A DNA stretch of 64,000 nucleotides from Candidatus Yanofskybacteria bacterium (GCA_020847715.1 JADLBM010000007.1:8624-72623), one strand, 5' to 3'; numbered from the stretch's first letter, positions 1 through 8,638 are shown. Made by a program: numbers and translations. Notes: generated by a model from the sequence alone, not told the origin.

Positions 1-113
1 GCACTCCGCTTCCCCGCCGGCACCGCCGCAAGCTGCGCTGTCACCGGCTCCGCCTCAAGGCGCTCTTCTGTCTCCGCAACAGGCGCCGGAGACTTCGCGA
101 AATTTAGTTTCAT
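1..113 (-). CDS. Partial CDS, N-terminus only (MKLNFAKSPAPVAETEERLEAEP...), unknown product; continues beyond window start
   Basis: Reverse-complement of 1-113 gives an ATG-initiated ORF running off the window edge; GC-rich third positions; no recognisable motif. Confidence 0.3.
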   Translation of the reverse strand, partial: MKLNFAKSPAPVAETEERLEAEPVTAQLAAVPAGKRS

Positions 114-305
114 CAATCGAGTCACACGCTATGACCCGCATACAAGCCGCCATGCTGGCAGCCCCCTCCGCGAGTGATAGCCGAGTATTACCCGTCAATC
201 ATACCACACCGGCGCAATTCATCCTGTTGATGAACCACCATTTGACCACGACACCCCTCTGCGCTACGCTTCACCCACATTCATAAAGATTAGTATCTCA
301 ATCGT

Positions 306-611
306 ATGCCCAGTAATACAACGTCCGGAGCTTTCCACTACACATACGTGCTCGAAAGCGCACGGGATGGTAAGCGCTATATTGGATATACAAGCAACCT
401 TACACGGCGTCTCGCCGAGCACGCCGCCGGATACTCTCGAGCAACCGCATCACGACTACCATTCTCGCTGGTCTACTTTGAGGGATGCCGGGATGCTGAA
501 GACGCTAGACGCCGAGAGCGCTACCTCAAAACAACACAAGGAAGACGTTTTCTTGGCCTACGACTCATAATACATAACACTCACCGAAAGGCGCTCAATG
601 CCGGACGTTGA
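306..611 (+). CDS. GIY-YIG nuclease superfamily protein (UPF0213/YhbQ-like)
   Basis: Translation has the GIY-YIG signature (FHYTYVLES...GKRYIGYTSNLTRRLAEH...E...R) in about 100 aa. Confidence 0.8.
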   Translation: MPSNTTSGAFHYTYVLESARDGKRYIGYTSNLTRRLAEHAAGYSRATASRLPFSLVYFEGCRDAEDARRRERYLKTTQGRRFLGLRLIIHNTHRKALNAGR

Positions 612-620
612 TATACTGGG

Positions 621-839
621 ATGCCAAAGAAATACCTCATGGTGCAAGAAGTGGCGCACCTCCTTGGAGTCACTCCCCTTACGATTCGCAACTGGGATGC
701 GAAGGGAAAGCTCACCGCGTACCGCCATCCGCTCAACAACTACCGGATGTATAAAGTCGAAGATGTCGAAGCTATCATCCGACGAATGGAAGTCTCCCGC
801 GAAAAACCGAAGGCGCGGAAAATAGATATTGTAGGCTAA
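621..839 (+). CDS. Small helix-turn-helix DNA-binding protein, excisionase/MerR-type HTH
   Basis: 72-aa protein; MVQEVAHLLGVTPLTIRNWDAKGKL matches the excisionase-family/MerR HTH pattern. Confidence 0.65.
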   Translation: MPKKYLMVQEVAHLLGVTPLTIRNWDAKGKLTAYRHPLNNYRMYKVEDVEAIIRRMEVSREKPKARKIDIVG

Positions 840-877
840 GAAAGAAAAAGCCCCTCACGTGCGTGAGGGGCGATACG

Positions 878-3745
878 TCAGACCGGCTTGGGGAGGAACT
901 TCCGCCAGTCGAACTGACGCGGATTTGCGAACCAGTCCCTGATTTGGTCGTACATCAGGGAGCGCACGAGGACGGGGCCGTCCTCGGGTCCACCGGTCGG
1001 GAGGCCGATGAACAGCACGCCCGTGTTGTTGGGCGGGAACCCACGCTCACCGTACAGGTCGGTGTGCGTGTTCGCGGGACCCATAGCGTAGATGGCGTAC
1101 GGGGTGATGATCTTGTTCTTGAAGTGCTTGTCACCGTACGTCTTCAGGGTGACGCGCCCCGTCGCATGGCCGAAGGAGTCGCCACGGGCGCGGTCGTTGT
1201 TGACCACGGCCGACAGCGGGTCCGACCAGCTCGAGAGACGCGCAGGAGACGCGAGGAACGTCAGTCCCCACTCATACCCACCAGGAGCGCAGACCGTGCC
1301 AAGCGCGAAGTACTCGTTGCTGTACAGCGGCGCGAGCACATAGCGATCGAGGAACGCCTGCTGGTCCTTCCAGTGGGAAAGCCCCGCCAGCCGAGCGCGG
1401 AGGTACTGTGCGTAGAAGACACCTTCTGTGAGCGTGTCTTCGACGGACGCCGCGAAGTGATTCCCGCAACCGATGTTGAGGATGCCGACGTCGCGCCCAT
1501 CGTACGGAATACCGCGAATCTCACTGAGACCGCGGATTGCCAGCTTGGAGCGCTGAGAGCGACGGAGCACCGAATCGAAGAAGTCCAGGTTGGGGTCGAT
1601 CAGCCGAGTGAACACTTCCAGCATTTGCGGCTGAACCCAGTCCAGACCTCGAATGAGGAACTGGCCGAGGTCGAACCGCGCGGCATCCACGGTGAGCTGC
1701 ATGACCGTGGCCGAGTCGCCCCGCTTCGCAGCGTTCCCGATTTCGTCGTGGCGCTTGCGCCACCACTTCTCGATCTGATCATACGACATCTCGCCCGGAT
1801 CGGGCTGCTTGTGTGTGTCGTAGTGATTCCCCTGCGTCGGGTCATCGTTGACCGTCAGGAGGTGAATCGGGAAATCGTTGCTGTCGAGGATGCCACCGCG
1901 GCGCATCATCATGACGACCGCCTCGGATACGCCGAGGTTGCGATGCGTGGTCGCGTCGAAGATGTGCTCACGAGAGCGGCTGCCCATGTGGATGTCCGTC
2001 ATCTCGACGGTCCAGATGTAGCGCGTCTCCGGATACGGGTAGTACCCGGGAATGACCGCCTTCGGCCGCTTTGCCTTCGGGAGGTGCTTCAGGTGGACGC
2101 TGTTGTCCAACTTCGCGATGGGGAACGAGTCTCCCGTCACGATGCCGTTGACGCGCTGGAGGACCAGTACGCCAGGGCAGAACTGCTCGGACTTCAGCAC
2201 CTTCGAGATGGGGTGCACCGCCTTCGTGGAGCCACGAAGCTCCCCGCGGAGGAACGCCTCGTCCACACAGATGGGAGCCACGTGCACTTCGGATGAGTCG
2301 CGCTGACCCATTGTGTAGTGATCGCGACCGACCATCCGGTGGTTCAGAGCGTACGGGTGGCAGATGACCGCAGTGTGCGGCACAGCTCCGCGGTACGCCT
2401 TCGCACCGAACTCGTCTACGAAGGACGAAAGGAGACCATCGGTGACCTTGATGTTACCCGGGATGTGAACCTCGATGGGATCGTAGTCGCCCACCTTGAC
2501 GTGGCTAGTCCCCTGCCCAATGACGCGGCAGTTGGGAATGACCTCTTCCAGCTTCTTCGCGAGCAGGGCGCGGAGTCGCAGACGGCGCCGCTCCAAATCC
2601 TGGTCACTGACGTTCGTGATGATGGTCATCGCAAGCTCTTCAGTGAGCTCGCGCAGGTCCTGTTCGTACTTCGCGATGTCGATGGCGGCCTGACGCCGAT
2701 CCGAAGCGCTCCTGCTGTTGAGCATGCTGTACGCCCGTGCCAACTCACGCTTCGTGAAGCTGATGTGGGCTTCGAGCTGCTTCCGCTCCAAGAGCGTGAT
2801 GTAGCGCACCTCGTAGTACGCCGCCGTGTTGATGAGCTCCTCCTCGACGTAGCCGAGGGGATAGAGCACGGGACCGCTGAACTCGGGAGACCCGTCAGGA
2901 CGGTGTGTGATCTTGTGCCACGCGTCCAGGAACCCCAGGAACTTCGCCTCGAGAGGCATGAAGATGACCTCGTCGAGCGGCTTACTCCTGAGGATGCGTC
3001 GCGCCTTCGCCTGATACGAGGCGGGCAGATGCTCGACCTTCACATGAAGGCCTGAGACCTGGGCGCGGTATGTCTTGATGGGACCAGCGGCCTTCTTGAG
3101 GTCCATGGACAGGCCGTTGGTAATCACGACGCACGCATCGCCTCGCTTCTCGGCATCCGACAACGCCCGCCGGACCGGATTGTCCTTGATCAGGCGGTTG
3201 TGCTTGATACCGATGAGGCCACCGTTGACGAACGCGACCGTCCAGTCCGCCCCTGCGGGCACGACGAACGGGTTCGCGAAGCTGGATTCAGGAAACTCGA
3301 AGAGCTCCGCGTCCGCGGCGAGATCCTCCGTGGACAGGCGCCCCATGCCGGCGATGAACTTCGCCGATGCGTGGGCATTCGTGACACCCGTCAGGAACTT
3401 CGCCTTCTTGGCGAACATGTCCTCGGGGATGTACGCGTAGTACTTCTTCCGGAACTCGTCCAACGGAATGTTGGTCCGAATCGCACGCTTGAGCGCATCG
3501 AGCGCCTGCGTGGTCCAGATGAGCTTCGGCAGTCGACCGATGAGACCCTGCTTCGAAAGGCGCAGGCCTCCGGTCAACTTCTCGACGAATTCGGTGCGGA
3601 GTGTCTGTAGGATCGACTCCAAGCCGCCCTTGCGCAGCAGCGCACCCGACTGGATGAGCTCGCGGCAACGGGACTCGAGGCCTTGGATCCTCCAGACGTC
3701 CTTCGCCGCCGAACCGTTTCGGTGTGACGTCTCGGCCTTTGCCAT
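878..3745 (-). CDS. Large hypothetical protein (955 aa) with calcineurin-like metallophosphoesterase motifs in the C-terminal half; N-terminal about 550 aa unassigned
   Basis: Single uninterrupted 955-aa ORF with diverse composition and GC-rich third positions; motifs TDIHMG...GNHYDTH and a second GCGNHF resemble DxH...GNH(D/E) of metallophosphatases; the overlapping + strand ORFs (863-2296, 2318-3055) are R/D/V/L-rich, typical antisense artefacts. Confidence 0.6.
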   Translation of the reverse strand: MAKAETSHRNGSAAKDVWRIQGLESRCRELIQSGALLRKGGLESILQTLRTEFVEKLTGGLRLSKQGLIGRLPKLIWTTQALDALKRAIRTNIPLDEFRKKYYAYIPEDMFAKKAKFLTGVTNAHASAKFIAGMGRLSTEDLAADAELFEFPESSFANPFVVPAGADWTVAFVNGGLIGIKHNRLIKDNPVRRALSDAEKRGDACVVITNGLSMDLKKAAGPIKTYRAQVSGLHVKVEHLPASYQAKARRILRSKPLDEVIFMPLEAKFLGFLDAWHKITHRPDGSPEFSGPVLYPLGYVEEELINTAAYYEVRYITLLERKQLEAHISFTKRELARAYSMLNSRSASDRRQAAIDIAKYEQDLRELTEELAMTIITNVSDQDLERRRLRLRALLAKKLEEVIPNCRVIGQGTSHVKVGDYDPIEVHIPGNIKVTDGLLSSFVDEFGAKAYRGAVPHTAVICHPYALNHRMVGRDHYTMGQRDSSEVHVAPICVDEAFLRGELRGSTKAVHPISKVLKSEQFCPGVLVLQRVNGIVTGDSFPIAKLDNSVHLKHLPKAKRPKAVIPGYYPYPETRYIWTVEMTDIHMGSRSREHIFDATTHRNLGVSEAVVMMMRRGGILDSNDFPIHLLTVNDDPTQGNHYDTHKQPDPGEMSYDQIEKWWRKRHDEIGNAAKRGDSATVMQLTVDAARFDLGQFLIRGLDWVQPQMLEVFTRLIDPNLDFFDSVLRRSQRSKLAIRGLSEIRGIPYDGRDVGILNIGCGNHFAASVEDTLTEGVFYAQYLRARLAGLSHWKDQQAFLDRYVLAPLYSNEYFALGTVCAPGGYEWGLTFLASPARLSSWSDPLSAVVNNDRARGDSFGHATGRVTLKTYGDKHFKNKIITPYAIYAMGPANTHTDLYGERGFPPNNTGVLFIGLPTGGPEDGPVLVRSLMYDQIRDWFANPRQFDWRKFLPKPV

Positions 3746-3860
3746 TGTGCTTCTCCTTCATTGTCAGAGAACAACGCCGAAACTATACCAATCTATTTCA
3801 CCCCGACAACTTGACGAAACATAAGAAAATGCGGGTGGCTTTCGCCACCCGCACCAAGCG

Positions 3861-5093
3861 CTATGCGGTCACCGCGACGGCCTTCACCGTCTTCGGCTTT
3901 TCGTCCATCACCGCACCCGACAACTGCTCCGTCTTCATCGCCAAGTTCTGGCCAATGAGACTGCCTCCGGCGTTGCCGACGATGTAGGGCGCTGCCTTCT
4001 CCGCCGTAATCGTCCCCTGTGCAAGGGAGTGCATGCACAGGTACCACACACCATTGGAGAACACCGAGGTCCACGCGAGGTACTGCGGACTGTTCCGCTG
4101 GCGGGCGCGGCTCACCATCGTGAAGCTCACTGCCTGCCACGCGGAAACCGCCAACAGAAGGAGTGCCGGCTTCCAACCAGCAAACCCGAAGACCAGCACA
4201 TGGACCACCAGAATGAACGCAAGCGCCTGCAGCTGCGCCACGGGCCATTGCACCTTGGCGCCGGCGGTCACATGTGCATCGAAGGTCGCCTTCAGCTTCT
4301 TCCCGAGATCCTGCCCGACATTCGCACCGATGAGCGAGCCGATGATGCTCCCCGTCGTAACGGGCAGGAACAACGCCCAATCGAATCGGTTGCTAATCAT
4401 GATGAACAGCTTCAGGAAGGCAACGCCGATTTGGAAGACGACTGCACCCGCGTGGAACCAGTAGTGATCGGTGCTTCGCGCGACGCGGAGAAGTGAGAAT
4501 GCGAAGCTTTCCACGACGGTCAGAAGAAGGAGTGCGGCAAGCAGGCCCCTGCCGAACGACGGCGCGCTCAGCATCATCTGCGCCCCAAGCGCGGCGCTTA
4601 GGAGCGCGACCGTCGGCCACAGTTTCATGAGCTGCGGCCGACCCTTCGCGCCCTCCGCAGACAGCCCCAGCGCGGACTCGATTCTGATCGAGAGCGTGTT
4701 CGCATGCAGCGTACCGAGAATGGTCGCAAACACGTATGGCGCCAAGAGCGCCGGCGGCAACTCGTTTCGCACCAGCAACCGTAGCGACCAGAAGAATGTG
4801 AAGCTCGCTGCCAGCGCCGCGAGCACGTGGTAGGCATTGCTATTGCGGTTCGCGGAACGCGACTGAAGGCCATACGCCGTGTTCTGGAGGTACGCCAGCC
4901 CCATCACAGTGATGGCTGTTAGCGGGAGCCACAGTGCGGGATGGAGCTGCACGAACTGAACTAGATGACCGTAGGTAGTCCGAAGCTCCTCGAAATGAGC
5001 CTTCGAGAACACGCCGAGCTGCGCCGCGACAACGCCGCCAATCAGCCACAGCGGATTGATGTTCCACAACCTCGCACCGAGACGAGTGAGCAT
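3861..5093 (-). CDS. Polytopic integral membrane protein (10-12 predicted TM segments), unknown function
   Basis: Long hydrophobic ORF; start placed at Met66 of the listed ORF (MLTRLGARLW...) because the upstream extension translates a noncoding tandem DNA repeat. Confidence 0.55.
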   Translation of the reverse strand: MLTRLGARLWNINPLWLIGGVVAAQLGVFSKAHFEELRTTYGHLVQFVQLHPALWLPLTAITVMGLAYLQNTAYGLQSRSANRNSNAYHVLAALAASFTFFWSLRLLVRNELPPALLAPYVFATILGTLHANTLSIRIESALGLSAEGAKGRPQLMKLWPTVALLSAALGAQMMLSAPSFGRGLLAALLLLTVVESFAFSLLRVARSTDHYWFHAGAVVFQIGVAFLKLFIMISNRFDWALFLPVTTGSIIGSLIGANVGQDLGKKLKATFDAHVTAGAKVQWPVAQLQALAFILVVHVLVFGFAGWKPALLLLAVSAWQAVSFTMVSRARQRNSPQYLAWTSVFSNGVWYLCMHSLAQGTITAEKAAPYIVGNAGGSLIGQNLAMKTEQLSGAVMDEKPKTVKAVAVTA

Positions 5094-5159
5094 GGAAGCT
5101 TCCTTTCTTGTAAATGACGCCGGAGGCACCCTAGCACATATGAGGCTCCATTCAAGCAC

Positions 5160-5263
5160 ATAGGTAATCCTACGGCCTGCTGGCCTCAGGATTGTTGCGC
5201 GACGGGGTCGATCGCAATAGGTAATCCTACGGCCTGCTGGCCTCAGGATTGTTGCGCGACGGG
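5160..5263. repeat. Two tandem copies of a 47-bp element (ATAGGTAATCCTACGGCCTGCTGGCCTCAGGATTGTTGCGCGACGGG) separated by 10 bp; each copy holds an inverted repeat AATCCT-N16-AGGATT
   Basis: Direct identical repeat read at 5160-5206 and 5217-5263, lying between an upstream terminator and the membrane-protein gene start. Confidence 0.85.
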
Positions 5264-5273
5264 TACGCGCAAC

Positions 5274-5302
5274 AAAAAGACCGCCCACGGATGTGGACGG
5301 TC
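5274..5302 (-). terminator. Rho-independent terminator for the minus-strand gene 5318-5611
   Basis: Minus strand reads GACCGTCCACATCCGTGGGCGGTC followed by TTTTT; separately, a TTGTTGCGC/GCGCAACAA stem-loop (not a T-tract terminator) lies downstream on the minus strand. Confidence 0.6.
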
Positions 5303-5317
5303 ATCGATTCAACCACC

Positions 5318-5611
5318 TCAGAGGACGCGCCAGCCCACGAGAAGTTTCGCCAGCTCGTGTACTTCCTGAGGCGAGAGACGCTGGCACTCGCAGAGACGAA
5401 CGGTCAGCTTGTCGTCGGGACACAACGAGACGATGTCACCGAACACCTCGTTTTTGAGCAAGAAAGGACTCGGCCTGCCAATCCATCGTCGTATGAAGTT
5501 GGCGAGCTCGTTCAGGTCTGCAACCCTCTTGATATCGTCCGCGACCAGACAGAGGTACTCGACCTGCTGGGGATGCGCCGCAATCGTCTTACACACCGAG
5601 ATCTTGGTCAT
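5318..5611 (-). CDS. Hypothetical small protein (97 aa, MTKISVCKTIAAHPQQVEYLCLVADD...)
   Basis: ORF with a GGAGGG Shine-Dalgarno 6 nt upstream of the internal ATG at 5611; the longer 124-aa version lacks an RBS. Confidence 0.5.
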   Translation of the reverse strand: MTKISVCKTIAAHPQQVEYLCLVADDIKRVADLNELANFIRRWIGRPSPFLLKNEVFGDIVSLCPDDKLTVRLCECQRLSPQEVHELAKLLVGWRVL

Positions 5612-5678
5612 TTCACCCTCCGCACAACGAACCGGCACCACGGTAGCAAGATTCGGGGCCCTGCGCAATCTTCCAGAA

Positions 5679-5709
5679 ATTGACTCATCCAAAGAACTAT
5701 GGTATATAA
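5679..5709 (+). promoter_or_regulatory. Sigma70-type promoter for the LemA-TPM operon (TTGACT-17-TATATAAT)
   Basis: TTGACT at 5679-5684, 17-nt spacer, TATATAAT at 5702-5709; AAGGAG RBS precedes the ATG at 5760. Confidence 0.6.
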
Positions 5710-7152: not shown

Positions 7153-7223
7153 GGGGGATTCGTTCAGTGGCAGGACGGCGGTCTCCAAAACCGCTAACGT
7201 GGGTTCGATTCCTACATCCCCCG
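7153..7223 (+). tRNA. tRNA-Trp (anticodon CCA)
   Basis: Cloverleaf read by hand: acceptor GGGGGAT/ATCCCCC, anticodon stem GCGGT/ACCGC with loop CTCCAAA, T-loop TTCGATT; preceded by promoter TTGCCG-17-TAGAAT (7111-7139). Confidence 0.9.
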
Positions 7224-7227
7224 CATC

Positions 7228-7262
7228 AAGAAAACAAGGCGCCATGTGGCGCCTTGTTTTCT
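7228..7262 (+). terminator. Rho-independent terminator after tRNA-Trp
   Basis: Perfect inverted repeat AAAACAAGGCGCC...GGCGCCTTGTTTT followed by CTTG. Confidence 0.7.
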
Positions 7263-7431
7263 TGCTTGTGAAGGAGTATGTAGGAATCGAACCGCCGGAG
7301 CGATGTTGCGTCAGTAGGCGCAACCGCGAGGCGGGGTCCCGAGTGCACGGCGAAGCGACGGCAAGCCGTGACACGAGGGCGATTCCCTTACAATCTTCGG
7401 CGAACCGTCGAGAGCGAAATTCCTGCACCCC

Positions 7432-8148
7432 ATGAAGGCAGCGCAAAAGAAATCAAAAAATGATGGCCATGTACTTGCGCTTAATAAGAACATCAAGGGA
7501 GTTCGAGCGCTCCTCGATATTGCCTCACGACCGAAAATTAGAGCAGTCGAAAAAAGAATTCTCCTGAGAAGCGCAATCGTCTTATTTGTGGCTTGCTGGG
7601 AAGCATTTGTTGAGGATTTAGCACGGACGGCTTTCAAATTCATGCAAAAAGAAGCTGGAGACTGTTCAAAAGTACCAGATTCAATCAAGAGAAGACTTTC
7701 GGAGCAATTACTCAAAATAAAAGACCCGATTTACCCCTGGTCCCTCGCGGAGGACGGTTGGAAAAATGTTCTTCAAAAGCACGGCGATACGGCAATCCAG
7801 GAATGGGTTGACGCGGTAAATACACCGAGTAGCCAGGCAGTCTCCCAACTTTTTGAAAAACTTATTGGACTCAGGAATATGCCAAACTTTTGGAGTTGGC
7901 GTGGCATGTCTGCGAATCAGGCGAAAGCAAGGCTCGCTGAATACATAAGGATTCGTGGAGAAATTGCGCACCGCGTCTCGGCAAATACCAGAGTAGCGAA
8001 AACCGTAATTTCTAGAACTTTTGTAATTGACCATGTTAACTTCATATTCCGCTTGGCCACACGCTCATGTAATGGTGTTCGGAAGCACCTAGTAAAATCG
8101 TTTGGTAAGGAGCCGTGGCCAAGCTATTCATACAGGGCAACCAAATGA
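7432..8148 (+). CDS. HEPN-motif protein (R-x4-H: IRIRGEIAHR), possible abortive-infection/toxin-like RNase; compositionally foreign
   Basis: 238-aa ORF that is clearly AT-rich (about 40-45% GC by eye versus over 60% in flanks); C-terminal RGEIAHR fits the HEPN Rx4-6H motif. Confidence 0.5.
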   Translation: MKAAQKKSKNDGHVLALNKNIKGVRALLDIASRPKIRAVEKRILLRSAIVLFVACWEAFVEDLARTAFKFMQKEAGDCSKVPDSIKRRLSEQLLKIKDPIYPWSLAEDGWKNVLQKHGDTAIQEWVDAVNTPSSQAVSQLFEKLIGLRNMPNFWSWRGMSANQAKARLAEYIRIRGEIAHRVSANTRVAKTVISRTFVIDHVNFIFRLATRSCNGVRKHLVKSFGKEPWPSYSYRATK

Positions 8149-8255
8149 TTTCATGCCCCACATGCCCCAGTCTGGTATCCGGTCCGCCACCCGGAAACCC
8201 TTATACTGCCCTGTAAAGGCGGGCGCTTAACCTCCCTCCCCCACAAAAACAAAGA

Positions 8256-8279
8256 CGGGGCCACCATGGTGGACCCGCC
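8256..8279 (-). terminator. Terminator hairpin (GGGGCCACCATGGTGGACCC) followed on the minus strand by a T-rich tract
   Basis: Near-perfect 20-nt palindrome; minus strand continues CTTTGTTTTTGTG. Confidence 0.5.
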
Positions 8280-8310
8280 GGCATCATCCATTGAGGAGTG
8301 ATGCCTCCGC

Positions 8311-8490
8311 ATACGATTACTTCTTCTTTTCGTTCTCGCTTCGGGCAATGAGGCCCCGCGTCTCGGCCTCGACACGCTGGAGGCGATCCTCCTCGCTTTC
8401 AAAGGTGAACATCGCGGAAATCGGGTTTCTTCCCGTTTCCCCGAAGTCACGCGCCCTCTCGTAACTGGTTACCTGCTCTTGAGCCGTCCT
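8311..8490 (-). CDS. Possible small protein (59 aa, MARTAQEQVTSYERARDFGETGRNPISAMFTFESEEDRLQRVEAETRGLIARSENEKKK)
   Basis: ORF below the 60-aa cut-off of the track; GGGGAAG Shine-Dalgarno 5 nt upstream of the ATG; terminator hairpin just downstream. The listed overlapping 99-aa ORF 8151-8450 is in another frame, is low-complexity and runs through the terminator. Confidence 0.35.
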
Positions 8491-8638
8491 CGCCATAACT
8501 TCCCCTACACGAAGTGCGCCACTTCTTCTCGTCGATGCTCCTGAACTGCTCTCTCTGCTGTGAATAGACCTACTGTACTCACTATTTTAAAATCTGTCAA
8601 TAATCCATGAGAAGGGGCTCTGTGGTATAGTTTTCGCC

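Follow-up and report, generated by a model that had tools for sequence, protein, structure and literature searches.

The first genes of the window, by which we mean the whole 64,000-nucleotide stretch of Candidatus Yanofskybacteria DNA that was analysed, raise the question of whether a small nuclease gene, a gene for a small DNA-binding protein and a very large gene convergent with it belong together as one mobile or anti-phage module, as the original prediction proposed. The coordinates and strands of all three open reading frames (ORFs) were confirmed: a GIY-YIG nuclease ORF of the YhbQ/COG2827-like single-domain type (306–611, + strand, 101 aa), a MerR/HTH_17-type DNA-binding protein (621–839, + strand, 72 aa) and, convergent with the latter beyond a G+C-rich terminator-like hairpin (850–871) that is kept in the relatives L006, L007 and L001, a 955-aa protein (878–3745, − strand). 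The locus is three things of different origin and not a single mobile or defence module, and the explanation that accounts best for the whole, which we consider probable, combines a vertical gene pair, an HTH protein serving as local regulator and a selfish GIY-YIG element.

The protein encoded at 306–611 matches PF01541 with an E-value of 8e-16 (58.5 bits against a cut-off of 22.6, model positions 2–74 of 78), well in keeping with the YhbQ-like GIY-YIG nuclease originally proposed. It has 334 homologues of about 100 aa and, among the 120 matches listed, those named by source all come from Patescibacteria (Yanofsky-, Nealson- and Levyibacteria). Strain comparison identifies the ORF plus 9 nt as a mini-element (306–620, + strand), a strain-specific insertion of about 315 bp (about 312–315 nt in general) that is missing, with clean junctions, from L006, L007 and L001; the suspicion that this gene is mobile is thus borne out by its precise strain-specific insertion. 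The right flank (621–5206) is 99.94% identical to L006. Window positions 1–319 are 91% identical to the same strain, a lower figure that could reflect an assembly chimera at a repeat; the divergence of the flanks (91% left, 99.94% right) is also compatible with the co-conversion that a homing endonuclease gene would cause, but the mismatches lie in clusters more than 110 nt away from the junction. It should be noted that the precise presence/absence at the HTH start codon is seen in a single pair of empty and filled sites.

A direct repeat, ATG(CC), stands on either side of the element (306–310 and 621–625), and the element is bounded by a 20-nt inverted repeat, detected as a BLAST self-match, whose arms form a terminal helix (P1) with 17 of 20 positions complementary. 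The 5′ arm (CCCAGTAATACAACGTCCGG, 309–328, + strand) lies inside codons 2–8 of the ORF and the 3′ arm (CCGGACGTTGATATACTGGG, 601–620, + strand) spans its stop codon, TGA 609–611. The same termini occur in L011–L015 and in 116 metagenome stretches (69 distinct). An ATG stands directly upstream of the element in 63 of the 69 copies and (N)ATG directly downstream in 67, a real ORF opening at 66 of these 67, and the host N-termini are of at least 64 distinct kinds, at least 64 unrelated genes downstream having their ATG 0–1 nt past the end of the conserved sequence. As the upstream ATG is also the start codon of the element's own ORF, the ATG 'duplication' is partly trivial; it is backed by off-register copies with other repeats (TGGA in L138, ATGA in L066, L098 and L089, TTGA in L129). 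Head-to-tail tandem arrays are present in L092, L124 and L129, the ORF is broken and the ends intact in 17 of the 69 copies, and, as repeats tend to do, many of the copies sit on very short contigs.

Two long-range helices were found with RNAalifold: P1, joining the ends, and an internal helix, P2. In the 13 helix pairs outside the search pattern 97.6% of cells are paired, 10 of these pairs show double changes, and the double-change cells number 48 against 5.4 ± 2.1 in shuffles (0/500) and at most 9 in slid registers. The compensatory changes connect codons at the N-terminal end of the ORF with those at its C-terminal end, and codons in its middle with the tail. The window copy itself folds with paired ends in the MFE and centroid structures alike (z −3.35). 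Rfam covariance models run over window positions 200–900 gave only weak chance matches, on the terminator hairpin. The compensatory changes that maintain the terminal and the internal helix indicate that a single strand in folded form (mRNA or ssDNA, the covariation fitting either equally well) is part of the mechanism; in particular, the covariation of P2 is not explained by terminal repeats read as duplex DNA. We propose a recent insertion of a selfish GIY-YIG element precisely onto the start codon of the HTH gene. Its nuclease ORF would then use the leader and ATG that had belonged to the host gene, and the host gene would acquire a new ATG 9–10 nt past the element's stop codon. The folded strand would take part in mobility, by a mechanism that we infer.

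An ordinary YhbQ-like housekeeping gene in an operon, with an inverted repeat arising by coincidence, might look similar at a single locus, given that YhbQ-type single-domain GIY-YIG proteins are widespread, that CPR genes are tightly packed and that the upstream ATG is necessarily the start of the ORF. This explanation has to contend with precise presence/absence beside a flank that is 99.9% identical, with ends that abut so many unrelated start codons, with the tandem arrays, the copies on short contigs and the 17 copies in which intact ends outlive the ORF, and with compensatory changes across codons, which count against it because protein constraint cannot produce such pairing. The strain comparison, the 64 host sites and the covariation led us to reject it as exceedingly improbable. 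The element resembles the T4 Seg proteins and YhbQ/COG2827 in its GIY-YIG domain and in being a small selfish gene that settles between genes, leaving these intact, with presence/absence among strains, and differs from them in its 20-nt inverted repeat, its 3–4-nt direct repeat, its insertion at the start codons of many unrelated genes, its tandem arrays and its two covarying helices. In Seg proteins and I-TevI DNA is bound by a domain of its own, which is missing here: the GIY-YIG ORF, at about 100 aa, comprises the catalytic domain only. With IS elements and MITEs it shares terminal inverted repeats, short direct repeats, many unrelated sites and decayed copies with intact ends; unlike these it encodes a GIY-YIG nuclease, is only about 312 nt long and is coding throughout. 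Its protein belongs to none of the known transposase classes (DDE, HUH, serine/tyrosine recombinase), having the GIY-YIG domain only; we know of no IS family that uses a GIY-YIG nuclease as transposase, and no description of a start-codon-targeting GIY-YIG unit was found in the searchable literature.

The product of the host gene (621–839) had been called an excisionase/MerR-type HTH protein. The second half of that label stands, with 39.2 bits to Pfam MerR (cut-off 28.2) and 31 bits to HTH_17 (cut-off 27), and the first does not, since the NCBIfam 'excisionase' model gives 25.6 against a cut-off of 28.8; the scores for BldC and MADS1 also fall below their NCBIfam cut-offs. PHROG excisionase-type families do match the protein, and in PADLOC it matches mad1 (E 5.6e-10), a match that reflects the generic HTH_17 fold; no other MADS genes are present at the locus. 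Set beside excisionases and BldC-like members of the MerR/HTH_17 group, which it resembles in its Pfam scores, the 72-aa protein has neither an effector domain nor an integrase partner. It lies next to the large gene and its membrane-protein neighbour (see below) in 16 of 43 loci, with 53–93% identity across Paceibacteria, and is probably a local transcription factor rather than an excisionase.

The 955-aa protein has no match in Pfam, NCBIfam or PADLOC, so that the earlier remark that its N-terminal region of about 550 aa fits no family was correct; 18 other family members likewise lack a Pfam/NCBIfam metallophosphoesterase (MPE) match at E ≤ 0.01–0.1, and the family profile has no sequence match among PDB chains. 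AlphaFold2 (AF2) models were made of the full-length protein (pLDDT 86.5) and of residues 140–565 (pLDDT 85). According to these models the N-terminal region is a helical domain followed by a second, degenerate MPE fold, a result new with respect to the original prediction. The all-helical domain (residues 16–120, 3386–3700 on the − strand, from DSSP of the AF2 model) is the variable part of the family, being replaced or extended in relatives, and the family profile core begins at about position 145. There follows the first MPE fold, MPE-N (residues ~160–545, 2111–3268, − strand), recovered by fold search without canonical metal-binding motifs and interrupted by a helical hairpin of about 100 aa (residues 299–402, 2540–2851, − strand). 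The second, MPE-C (residues ~576–955, 881–2020, − strand), modelled as part of the full-length protein, gave the four-layer alpha/beta sandwich of the MPE fold in fold searches and carries a helical insertion at about residues 643–732. The best structural neighbours of both halves are DP1, the polymerase B-subunits and Mre11, the comparison with PolD DP1/B-subunits aligning the PDE fold alone (211–244 of 440 residues), and HHalign detected no sequence relation between the two halves. No ATPase domain and no recognisable capping or OB domain was identified in the protein.

Fold and invariant motifs agree that the C-terminal half is MPE-like, as first proposed. In all of 38 homologues D584, H586, D634, D635, N762, H763 and H874 are invariant, which supplies motif I (D584-x-H586), motif II (D634-D635, lacking the Gly), motif III (N762-H763) and motif IV (H874); motif V is incomplete, with one His only (H894, in 29 of 38). 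The three motifs originally quoted are all present (TDIHMG at 583–588, GNHYDTH at 639–645 and GCGNHF at 760–765), and of these GNHYDTH is not conserved as a metal motif: its GNH (639–641) is poorly kept, N640 in 23 and H641 in 21 of the 38 homologues, and was rejected as the true motif III in favour of N762-H763. In MPE-N, by the same alignment, N174 replaces the Asp of DxH and GNH is absent; N189, R192, K278, E301 and D495 are invariant and R193, K217, K218, R470 and R474 nearly so. MPE-N is, on its sequence, probably a pseudo-enzyme.

The family is conserved, lineage-restricted and linked to a membrane-protein gene. Full-length homologues (n = 41) range in identity from 94% down to 32%, 197 representatives with the same architecture occur among 1.84 billion proteins, and all but one of the 44 genome loci are titled CPR/Patescibacteria or plain 'bacterium'; distant relatives carry winged-HTH domains at the N-terminal position. 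The gene is single-copy, is kept in all related strains, follows lineage in its identity (from 94 to 30%) and lies in core synteny, among genes for ribosomal proteins, EF-Ts, EF-P, YceG, IMPDH (in only 6 of 43 loci) and MraZ, and the description of all three genes as unlike the housekeeping remainder is for this reason only partly right. At the left edge the window holds the start of a membrane/TPR protein of about 820 aa (1–113, − strand, ATG 113–111; aligned to L006 4782–7244). Beyond this edge, as read from strains with 99.07–99.94% identical right flanks and from a 94%-identical relative, come the TPR membrane protein, YceG, L10 and L12, in that order in L006. Where a look for an integrase or att sites upstream had been advised, core genes were found; of the two findings named in advance as refuting the module, ordinary core neighbours are therefore present, while profile searches assign the large protein itself to no family.

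The constant partner of the 955-aa gene is the membrane-protein gene, outside the region first singled out, and not the GIY-YIG gene. It encodes a multi-pass protein of about 410 aa (3861–5093, − strand), with its true start at M66 of a 475-aa ORF (3861–5288), and is separated from the 955-aa gene by a terminator-like hairpin (3855–3828) followed by a promoter-like site (3809–3782), both on the − strand within 3782–3855 and recognised by consensus matches only. It adjoins the large gene in 32 of 43 loci, in all four orientations, ahead of the HTH gene (16) and core genes (at most 13), and the homologues beside the large gene in L001, L002 and L004 are 89, 58 and 29% identical. Like TauE/SafE (TSUP) proteins the partner is multi-pass with an internal two-fold repeat (duplication E 8e-7), and 6 of 21 members match PF01925, if weakly (E ≤ 0.1, best 7e-7). 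It differs from them in that the window's own protein has no PF01925 match, in being longer, at about 400 aa, than typical TauE proteins, and in a twice-repeated SRxxxRN motif of its own.

That GIY-YIG nuclease, HTH protein and large MPE protein form one mobile element or anti-phage module has in its favour the nuclease and DNA-binding flavour of the genes, the mad1 and PHROG excisionase matches of the HTH protein and its recurrence by the large gene, and a separate HEPN insertion 3.5 kb away. Yet the GIY-YIG gene is missing from near-identical strains and from all 42 other large-gene loci, three of which carry unrelated GIY-YIG copies elsewhere. The defence-system search suggested for the locus, made with PADLOC-DB v2, returned the generic mad1 match and nothing for the large, membrane or GIY-YIG proteins. 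Within about 10 kb, L001, L002, L004, L006, L008 and L009 are free of integrase genes; in a seventh relative, L010 (36% identical and with other surroundings), a phage integrase is encoded about 1 kb upstream. No att sites were found, and GC (0.62 against 0.59 for the window) is of ordinary composition. An integrative element or prophage remnant was rejected on the integrase result in six of seven relatives, the invariable presence of the large gene, its ordinary GC and the sub-threshold excisionase score, and the single module as a whole is very unlikely.

The reading that we prefer for the large protein and its membrane partner is a vertically inherited, Paceibacteria-specific gene pair. In the cytoplasmic 955-aa protein MPE-C, which keeps a two-metal site, would be an active metal-dependent phosphodiesterase, and MPE-N, rich in invariant Arg/Lys, may bind the phosphorylated substrate, the whole amounting to an Mre11-type dimer fused into one chain and left with a single active site. 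With its partner it could serve as a housekeeping nuclease or phosphodiesterase at the membrane that processes DNA ends or salvages nucleotides. The substrates of MPE enzymes include DNA and RNA as well as cyclic nucleotides, lipid A precursors, phosphoproteins and sulfur compounds, and a nucleic acid or nucleotide-derived substrate is our preferred guess, one that we place well short of an even chance. The protein might instead be a small-molecule phosphodiesterase or phosphatase (for cyclic or dinucleotides, nucleotide-sugars, lipid precursors or a sulfo/phospho-ester) whose compound is moved by the TauE-like partner, without a nucleic-acid role. The transporter-like character of the partner (its best TauE/SafE match and internal duplication) and the IMPDH neighbours in several genomes speak for this, but the nearest folds of both halves, the size of the protein with its extra helical domain and coiled hairpin, the winged-HTH domains of distant relatives and the scarcity of the IMPDH linkage speak against it, and we regard it as rather unlikely.

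The large protein is no close counterpart of DP1 or Mre11/SbcD: it matches no Pfam/NCBIfam MPE model or PDB chain in sequence, one of its MPE folds is degenerate with a 100-aa helical hairpin, its partner is a membrane protein and its family is restricted to Paceibacteria. No Rad50/SbcC neighbour occurs in the 43 loci and no Mre11/SbcD model matches; no DP2-like gene lies nearby, as there would be for PolD DP1, and the host is bacterial. The B-subunits of eukaryotic Pol alpha, delta and epsilon are examples of inactivated MPE folds, from which the large protein differs in being bacterial, in lacking a polymerase context and, as modelled, in the fusion of its degenerate domain to an apparently active MPE.

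Tentatively, and at somewhat less than even confidence, we would go further and see in the GIY-YIG unit a new class of minimal mobile CPR element that targets start codons, is recognised or processed through its own folded strand (ends paired in P1, internal helix P2) and commandeers the start of translation of the host gene while leaving that gene expressed, and in the tandem-MPE/membrane pair an uncharacterised housekeeping machine of Paceibacteria. For annotation, the locus should not carry the label of defence island or prophage remnant. The large protein represents a conserved family that sequence-profile searches miss; its bearers are bacteria with minimal genomes, where a 955-aa gene is costly and so is probably important, and the locking of a fused active/inactive MPE pair to a membrane protein leads to the hypothesis of a nuclease or phosphodiesterase that depends on metal and whose catalytic residues can be named. 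The mini-element makes it possible to test how a target is found by a nuclease that has no DNA-binding domain, and it carries a covariation-supported nucleic-acid structure overlapping coding sequence. It would account for the abundance of small 'GIY-YIG nuclease family' ORFs among CPR genomes and for part of the breaks in their assemblies, and it offers a natural case of a selfish gene that settles on start codons while the host gene is not silenced.

The original prediction treated the first three ORFs of the window as one possible mobile or defence module, and its description of the genes themselves is confirmed. They encode a 101-aa GIY-YIG domain protein (306–611, + strand; PF01541, E 8e-16), a 72-aa HTH protein (621–839, + strand) that lies above the Pfam cut-offs for MerR and HTH_17 and under the NCBIfam cut-offs for excisionase, BldC and MADS1, and, convergent with the HTH gene, a 955-aa protein (the large protein; 878–3745, − strand) in which all of the quoted motifs are found. 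As a whole, the single module is not supported: the large gene lies among core genes, and clustering of all ORFs of 43 loci indicated no linkage of the GIY-YIG gene to it. The locus is instead of interest for two separate things, an uncharacterised Paceibacteria-specific pair consisting of a tandem metallophosphoesterase (MPE) and a membrane protein, and a GIY-YIG mini-element that targets start codons.

Core genes surround the large gene in the seven genomes looked up, including those for ribosomal proteins S2, S16, L10, L12, L31 and L33 as well as EF-Ts, EF-P, RF-1, YceG, IMPDH, FtsZ/FtsA and MraZ. The region past the left edge of the window, read from the near-identical strains L006 and L007, holds ordinary genes (an ~820-aa membrane/TPR protein, then YceG, L10 and L12) with no integrase among them. 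In the ORF clustering the only strongly recurrent neighbour was a ~400-aa membrane protein (32 of 43 loci), which may lie upstream or downstream of the large gene and on either strand; in the window this membrane partner is encoded at 3861–5093 (− strand), just beyond the interval originally singled out. It carries an internal duplication (E 8e-7), and weak similarity to TauE/SafE was detected in 6 of 21 members of its family, the window's own copy being without a match. The HTH gene is the second commonest neighbour (16/43 loci, 53–93% identity) and always sits at the edge of the large-gene/membrane-gene pair. This recurrence makes the large protein and the membrane protein, frequently joined by the HTH protein, the conserved unit, whose behaviour is that of vertically inherited housekeeping genes and not of an island.

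Several other features of these neighbourhoods were recorded. Each half of the duplication in the membrane partner has one copy of a motif (residues ~66–89, Q-N-x6-S-R-x3-R-N-x3-Y-H, and ~323–347, S-F-x3-S-R-A-x2-R-N), the second of which matches phrog_33664, a 118-aa phage family of unknown function (E 1.6e-8). The relative L008 (17213–18574) has genes for bAvd and a reverse transcriptase (RVT_1), which diversity-generating retroelements typically contain, within a few kb of the large gene; the relative L004 (16322–16687) has only a bAvd-like gene. Between the membrane gene and LemA the window (5293–5692) differs from its 94%-identical relative L001 (7832–8447), in which two small ORFs (105 and 98 aa) are called. 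Directly 3′ of tRNA-Trp (7153–7224) there is a ~1.4-kb insertion (7226–8634) of low GC (0.47) that holds a HEPN RiboL-PSP gene (7432–8148; PF18735, E 3.6e-17) and is missing from L001, in which the flanks are contiguous; it could represent a small island associated with the tRNA gene, one that perhaps holds a defence or toxin gene.

The large protein belongs to a narrowly distributed family. It has no match in Pfam, NCBIfam or PADLOC, its family profile matched no PDB sequence, and a weak PHROG match (E 1.7e-3, on the coiled hairpin) was taken as spurious. A word-indexed search returned 41 full-length homologues (94 to 32% identity); CPR/Parcubacteria metagenome bins are the source of every one, and a precomputed Pfam domain is attached to none. 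An exhaustive HMM search over 1.84 billion cluster representatives yielded no more than 197 relatives, almost all sharing the same architecture, in which the conserved core begins near residue 145. Scanning one genome per species with a single peptide pattern gave 44 loci, which is for that reason a lower bound; 43 of these are titled CPR/Patescibacteria (among them Yanofsky-, Giovannoni-, Lloyd-, Azam-, Sungii- and Tagabacteria and ‘Paceibacterota’) or plain ‘bacterium’, the sole exception being a 3.3-kb contig binned as Methanosarcinales.

An AlphaFold2 model built from a 38-sequence alignment was confident (pLDDT 86.5, pTM 0.86). As full-length fold matches could hide the N-terminal part, residues 140–565 were also modelled apart (pLDDT 85). 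The two models divide the protein into a helical domain (residues 16–120), an N-terminal MPE domain (MPE-N, ~160–545) with an inserted helical hairpin (299–402) and a C-terminal MPE domain (MPE-C, ~576–955) with a helical insertion. Full-length structure matches together with motif order point to an MPE fold for MPE-C: D584-x-H586, D634-D635, N762-H763 and H874 are invariant in the 38 sequences and come after strand ends in the canonical order, and H894, at the motif V position, is kept in 29 of 38. The segment GNHYDTH, previously read as motif III, was rejected because its residues vary among the homologues. MPE-N is without DxH and GNH, and its invariant residues are N174, N189, R192, K278, E301 and D495, with R193, K217, K218, E302, R470, R474 and H511 nearly so. 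HHalign did not relate the sequences of the two halves to each other, so either any duplication is ancient or two MPE folds were fused independently, and gave no signal between the N-terminal helical domain and the winged-HTH regions of distant relatives. Foldseek against viral models recovered single-domain phage MPEs only, with no tandem analogue.

The large protein's fold, the conservation of its motifs, its restriction to one lineage and its gene linkage are established. MPE-C would be an active two-metal phosphodiesterase and MPE-N a pseudo-enzyme that binds the substrate, something phosphorylated. We prefer nucleic acid or nucleotides as the substrate class, because DP1 and Mre11 rank first among the structural neighbours of each half, winged-HTH domains are present in distant relatives, conserved Arg and Lys are abundant in MPE-N and CPR bacteria depend on nucleotide salvage. 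Action on a small molecule, to which the transporter-like look of the membrane partner points, is nearly as likely.

Alignment of the window with L006, L007 and L001 showed that the GIY-YIG gene lies in a clean ~315-bp insertion (306–620) placed exactly at the HTH start codon, with ATGCC at both junctions; the empty site in L006 is TCTCAACCCTATGCCAAAGAAA. The ends form a 20-nt inverted repeat (309–328 vs 601–620, 17 of 20 positions matching). Homologues of ~100 aa are abundant (334 matches), every source-named one among the 120 listed being from Patescibacteria, and copies with 65–70% protein identity have the same termini, in which compensatory differences occur. A pattern comprising the outer 14 nt of each terminal arm found 116 metagenome stretches and gave no match in the viral contigs scanned. 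Among 69 distinct copies, 63 have ATG immediately 5′ of the element and 67 have (N)ATG immediately after its last G, this downstream ATG starting an ORF of at least 60 aa, or one that leaves the contig, in 66 of 67; 64 different host N-termini follow. The ORF is intact in 52 of the 69, the remainder being decayed yet with their ends kept. Head-to-tail tandem arrays occur at three loci (L092 4085–4423, L124 1889–2232 and L129 254–576). Just (T)ATG or TTGA separates the copies in an array, as if each new copy went in at the start codon of one already there. In copies that are out of register, other flanking bases are duplicated (TGGA in L138, ATGA in L066, L098 and L089, TTGA in L129), which argues that a short target duplication is real.

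The left flank (window 1–319) is only 90.9% identical to L006 (4575–4894), compared with 99.94% over 4.6 kb of right flank (99.07% in L007). Two of the mismatches lie 3 and 5 nt ahead of the ATG; the others are concentrated where the TPR-protein gene begins, and most of all the mismatches are >110 nt away from the junction. Possible causes are co-conversion, a chimera of strains formed at a repeat, or a gene start that is hypervariable and evolves fast.

RNAalifold on 57 copies predicted a terminal helix (P1) joining the two ends and a second helix (P2) pairing mid-ORF GCCAAACGCC with GGCGTTTGGC, the latter adjoining the 3′ arm. The window copy has its ends paired in the predicted fold (z −3.35), and no Rfam family matches the element. 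At the 13 P1/P2 pairs outside the fixed bases of the search pattern 97.6% of cells are paired, with double compensatory changes at 10 pairs; 48 double-change cells were observed, compared with 5.4 ± 2.1 in shuffles (0/500) and ≤9 in slid registers. As the arms lie in N-terminal and C-terminal codons, protein constraints cannot account for this covariation.

The element is a mobile unit that recurs, is associated with start codons and has a conserved structure in its folded strand. It was considered as a group I or group II intron and rejected, being too small and matching no Rfam intron model, and its boundaries (exon ending in G, no GUGYG) are unlike those of either class. No account of such an element came up in the literature searched, where GIY-YIG elements were looked for in connection with inverted repeats, insertion at start codons or CPR bacteria. 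P1 and P2 might act in ssDNA, as the substrate of a structure-specific nuclease without a DNA-binding domain, or in mRNA, where they could restrict translation of the nuclease, place the host leader beside the host ATG or serve as a processing site; G-U (14) and A-C (8) cells are too few to tell which strand. On insertion the leader and ATG of the host gene would serve the element's own ORF and the host gene would acquire a new ATG 9–10 nt past the stop codon of the element, making coupled re-initiation possible. The host leaders that precede the element are rich in A and T (position −1 is T in 51 of 69), and a Shine-Dalgarno-like purine motif is present in only 2 of 69 (20 nt before the ATG, L060–L139). 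Translation initiation of these CPR genes may be independent of Shine-Dalgarno pairing, a point relevant to re-initiation at the downstream gene.
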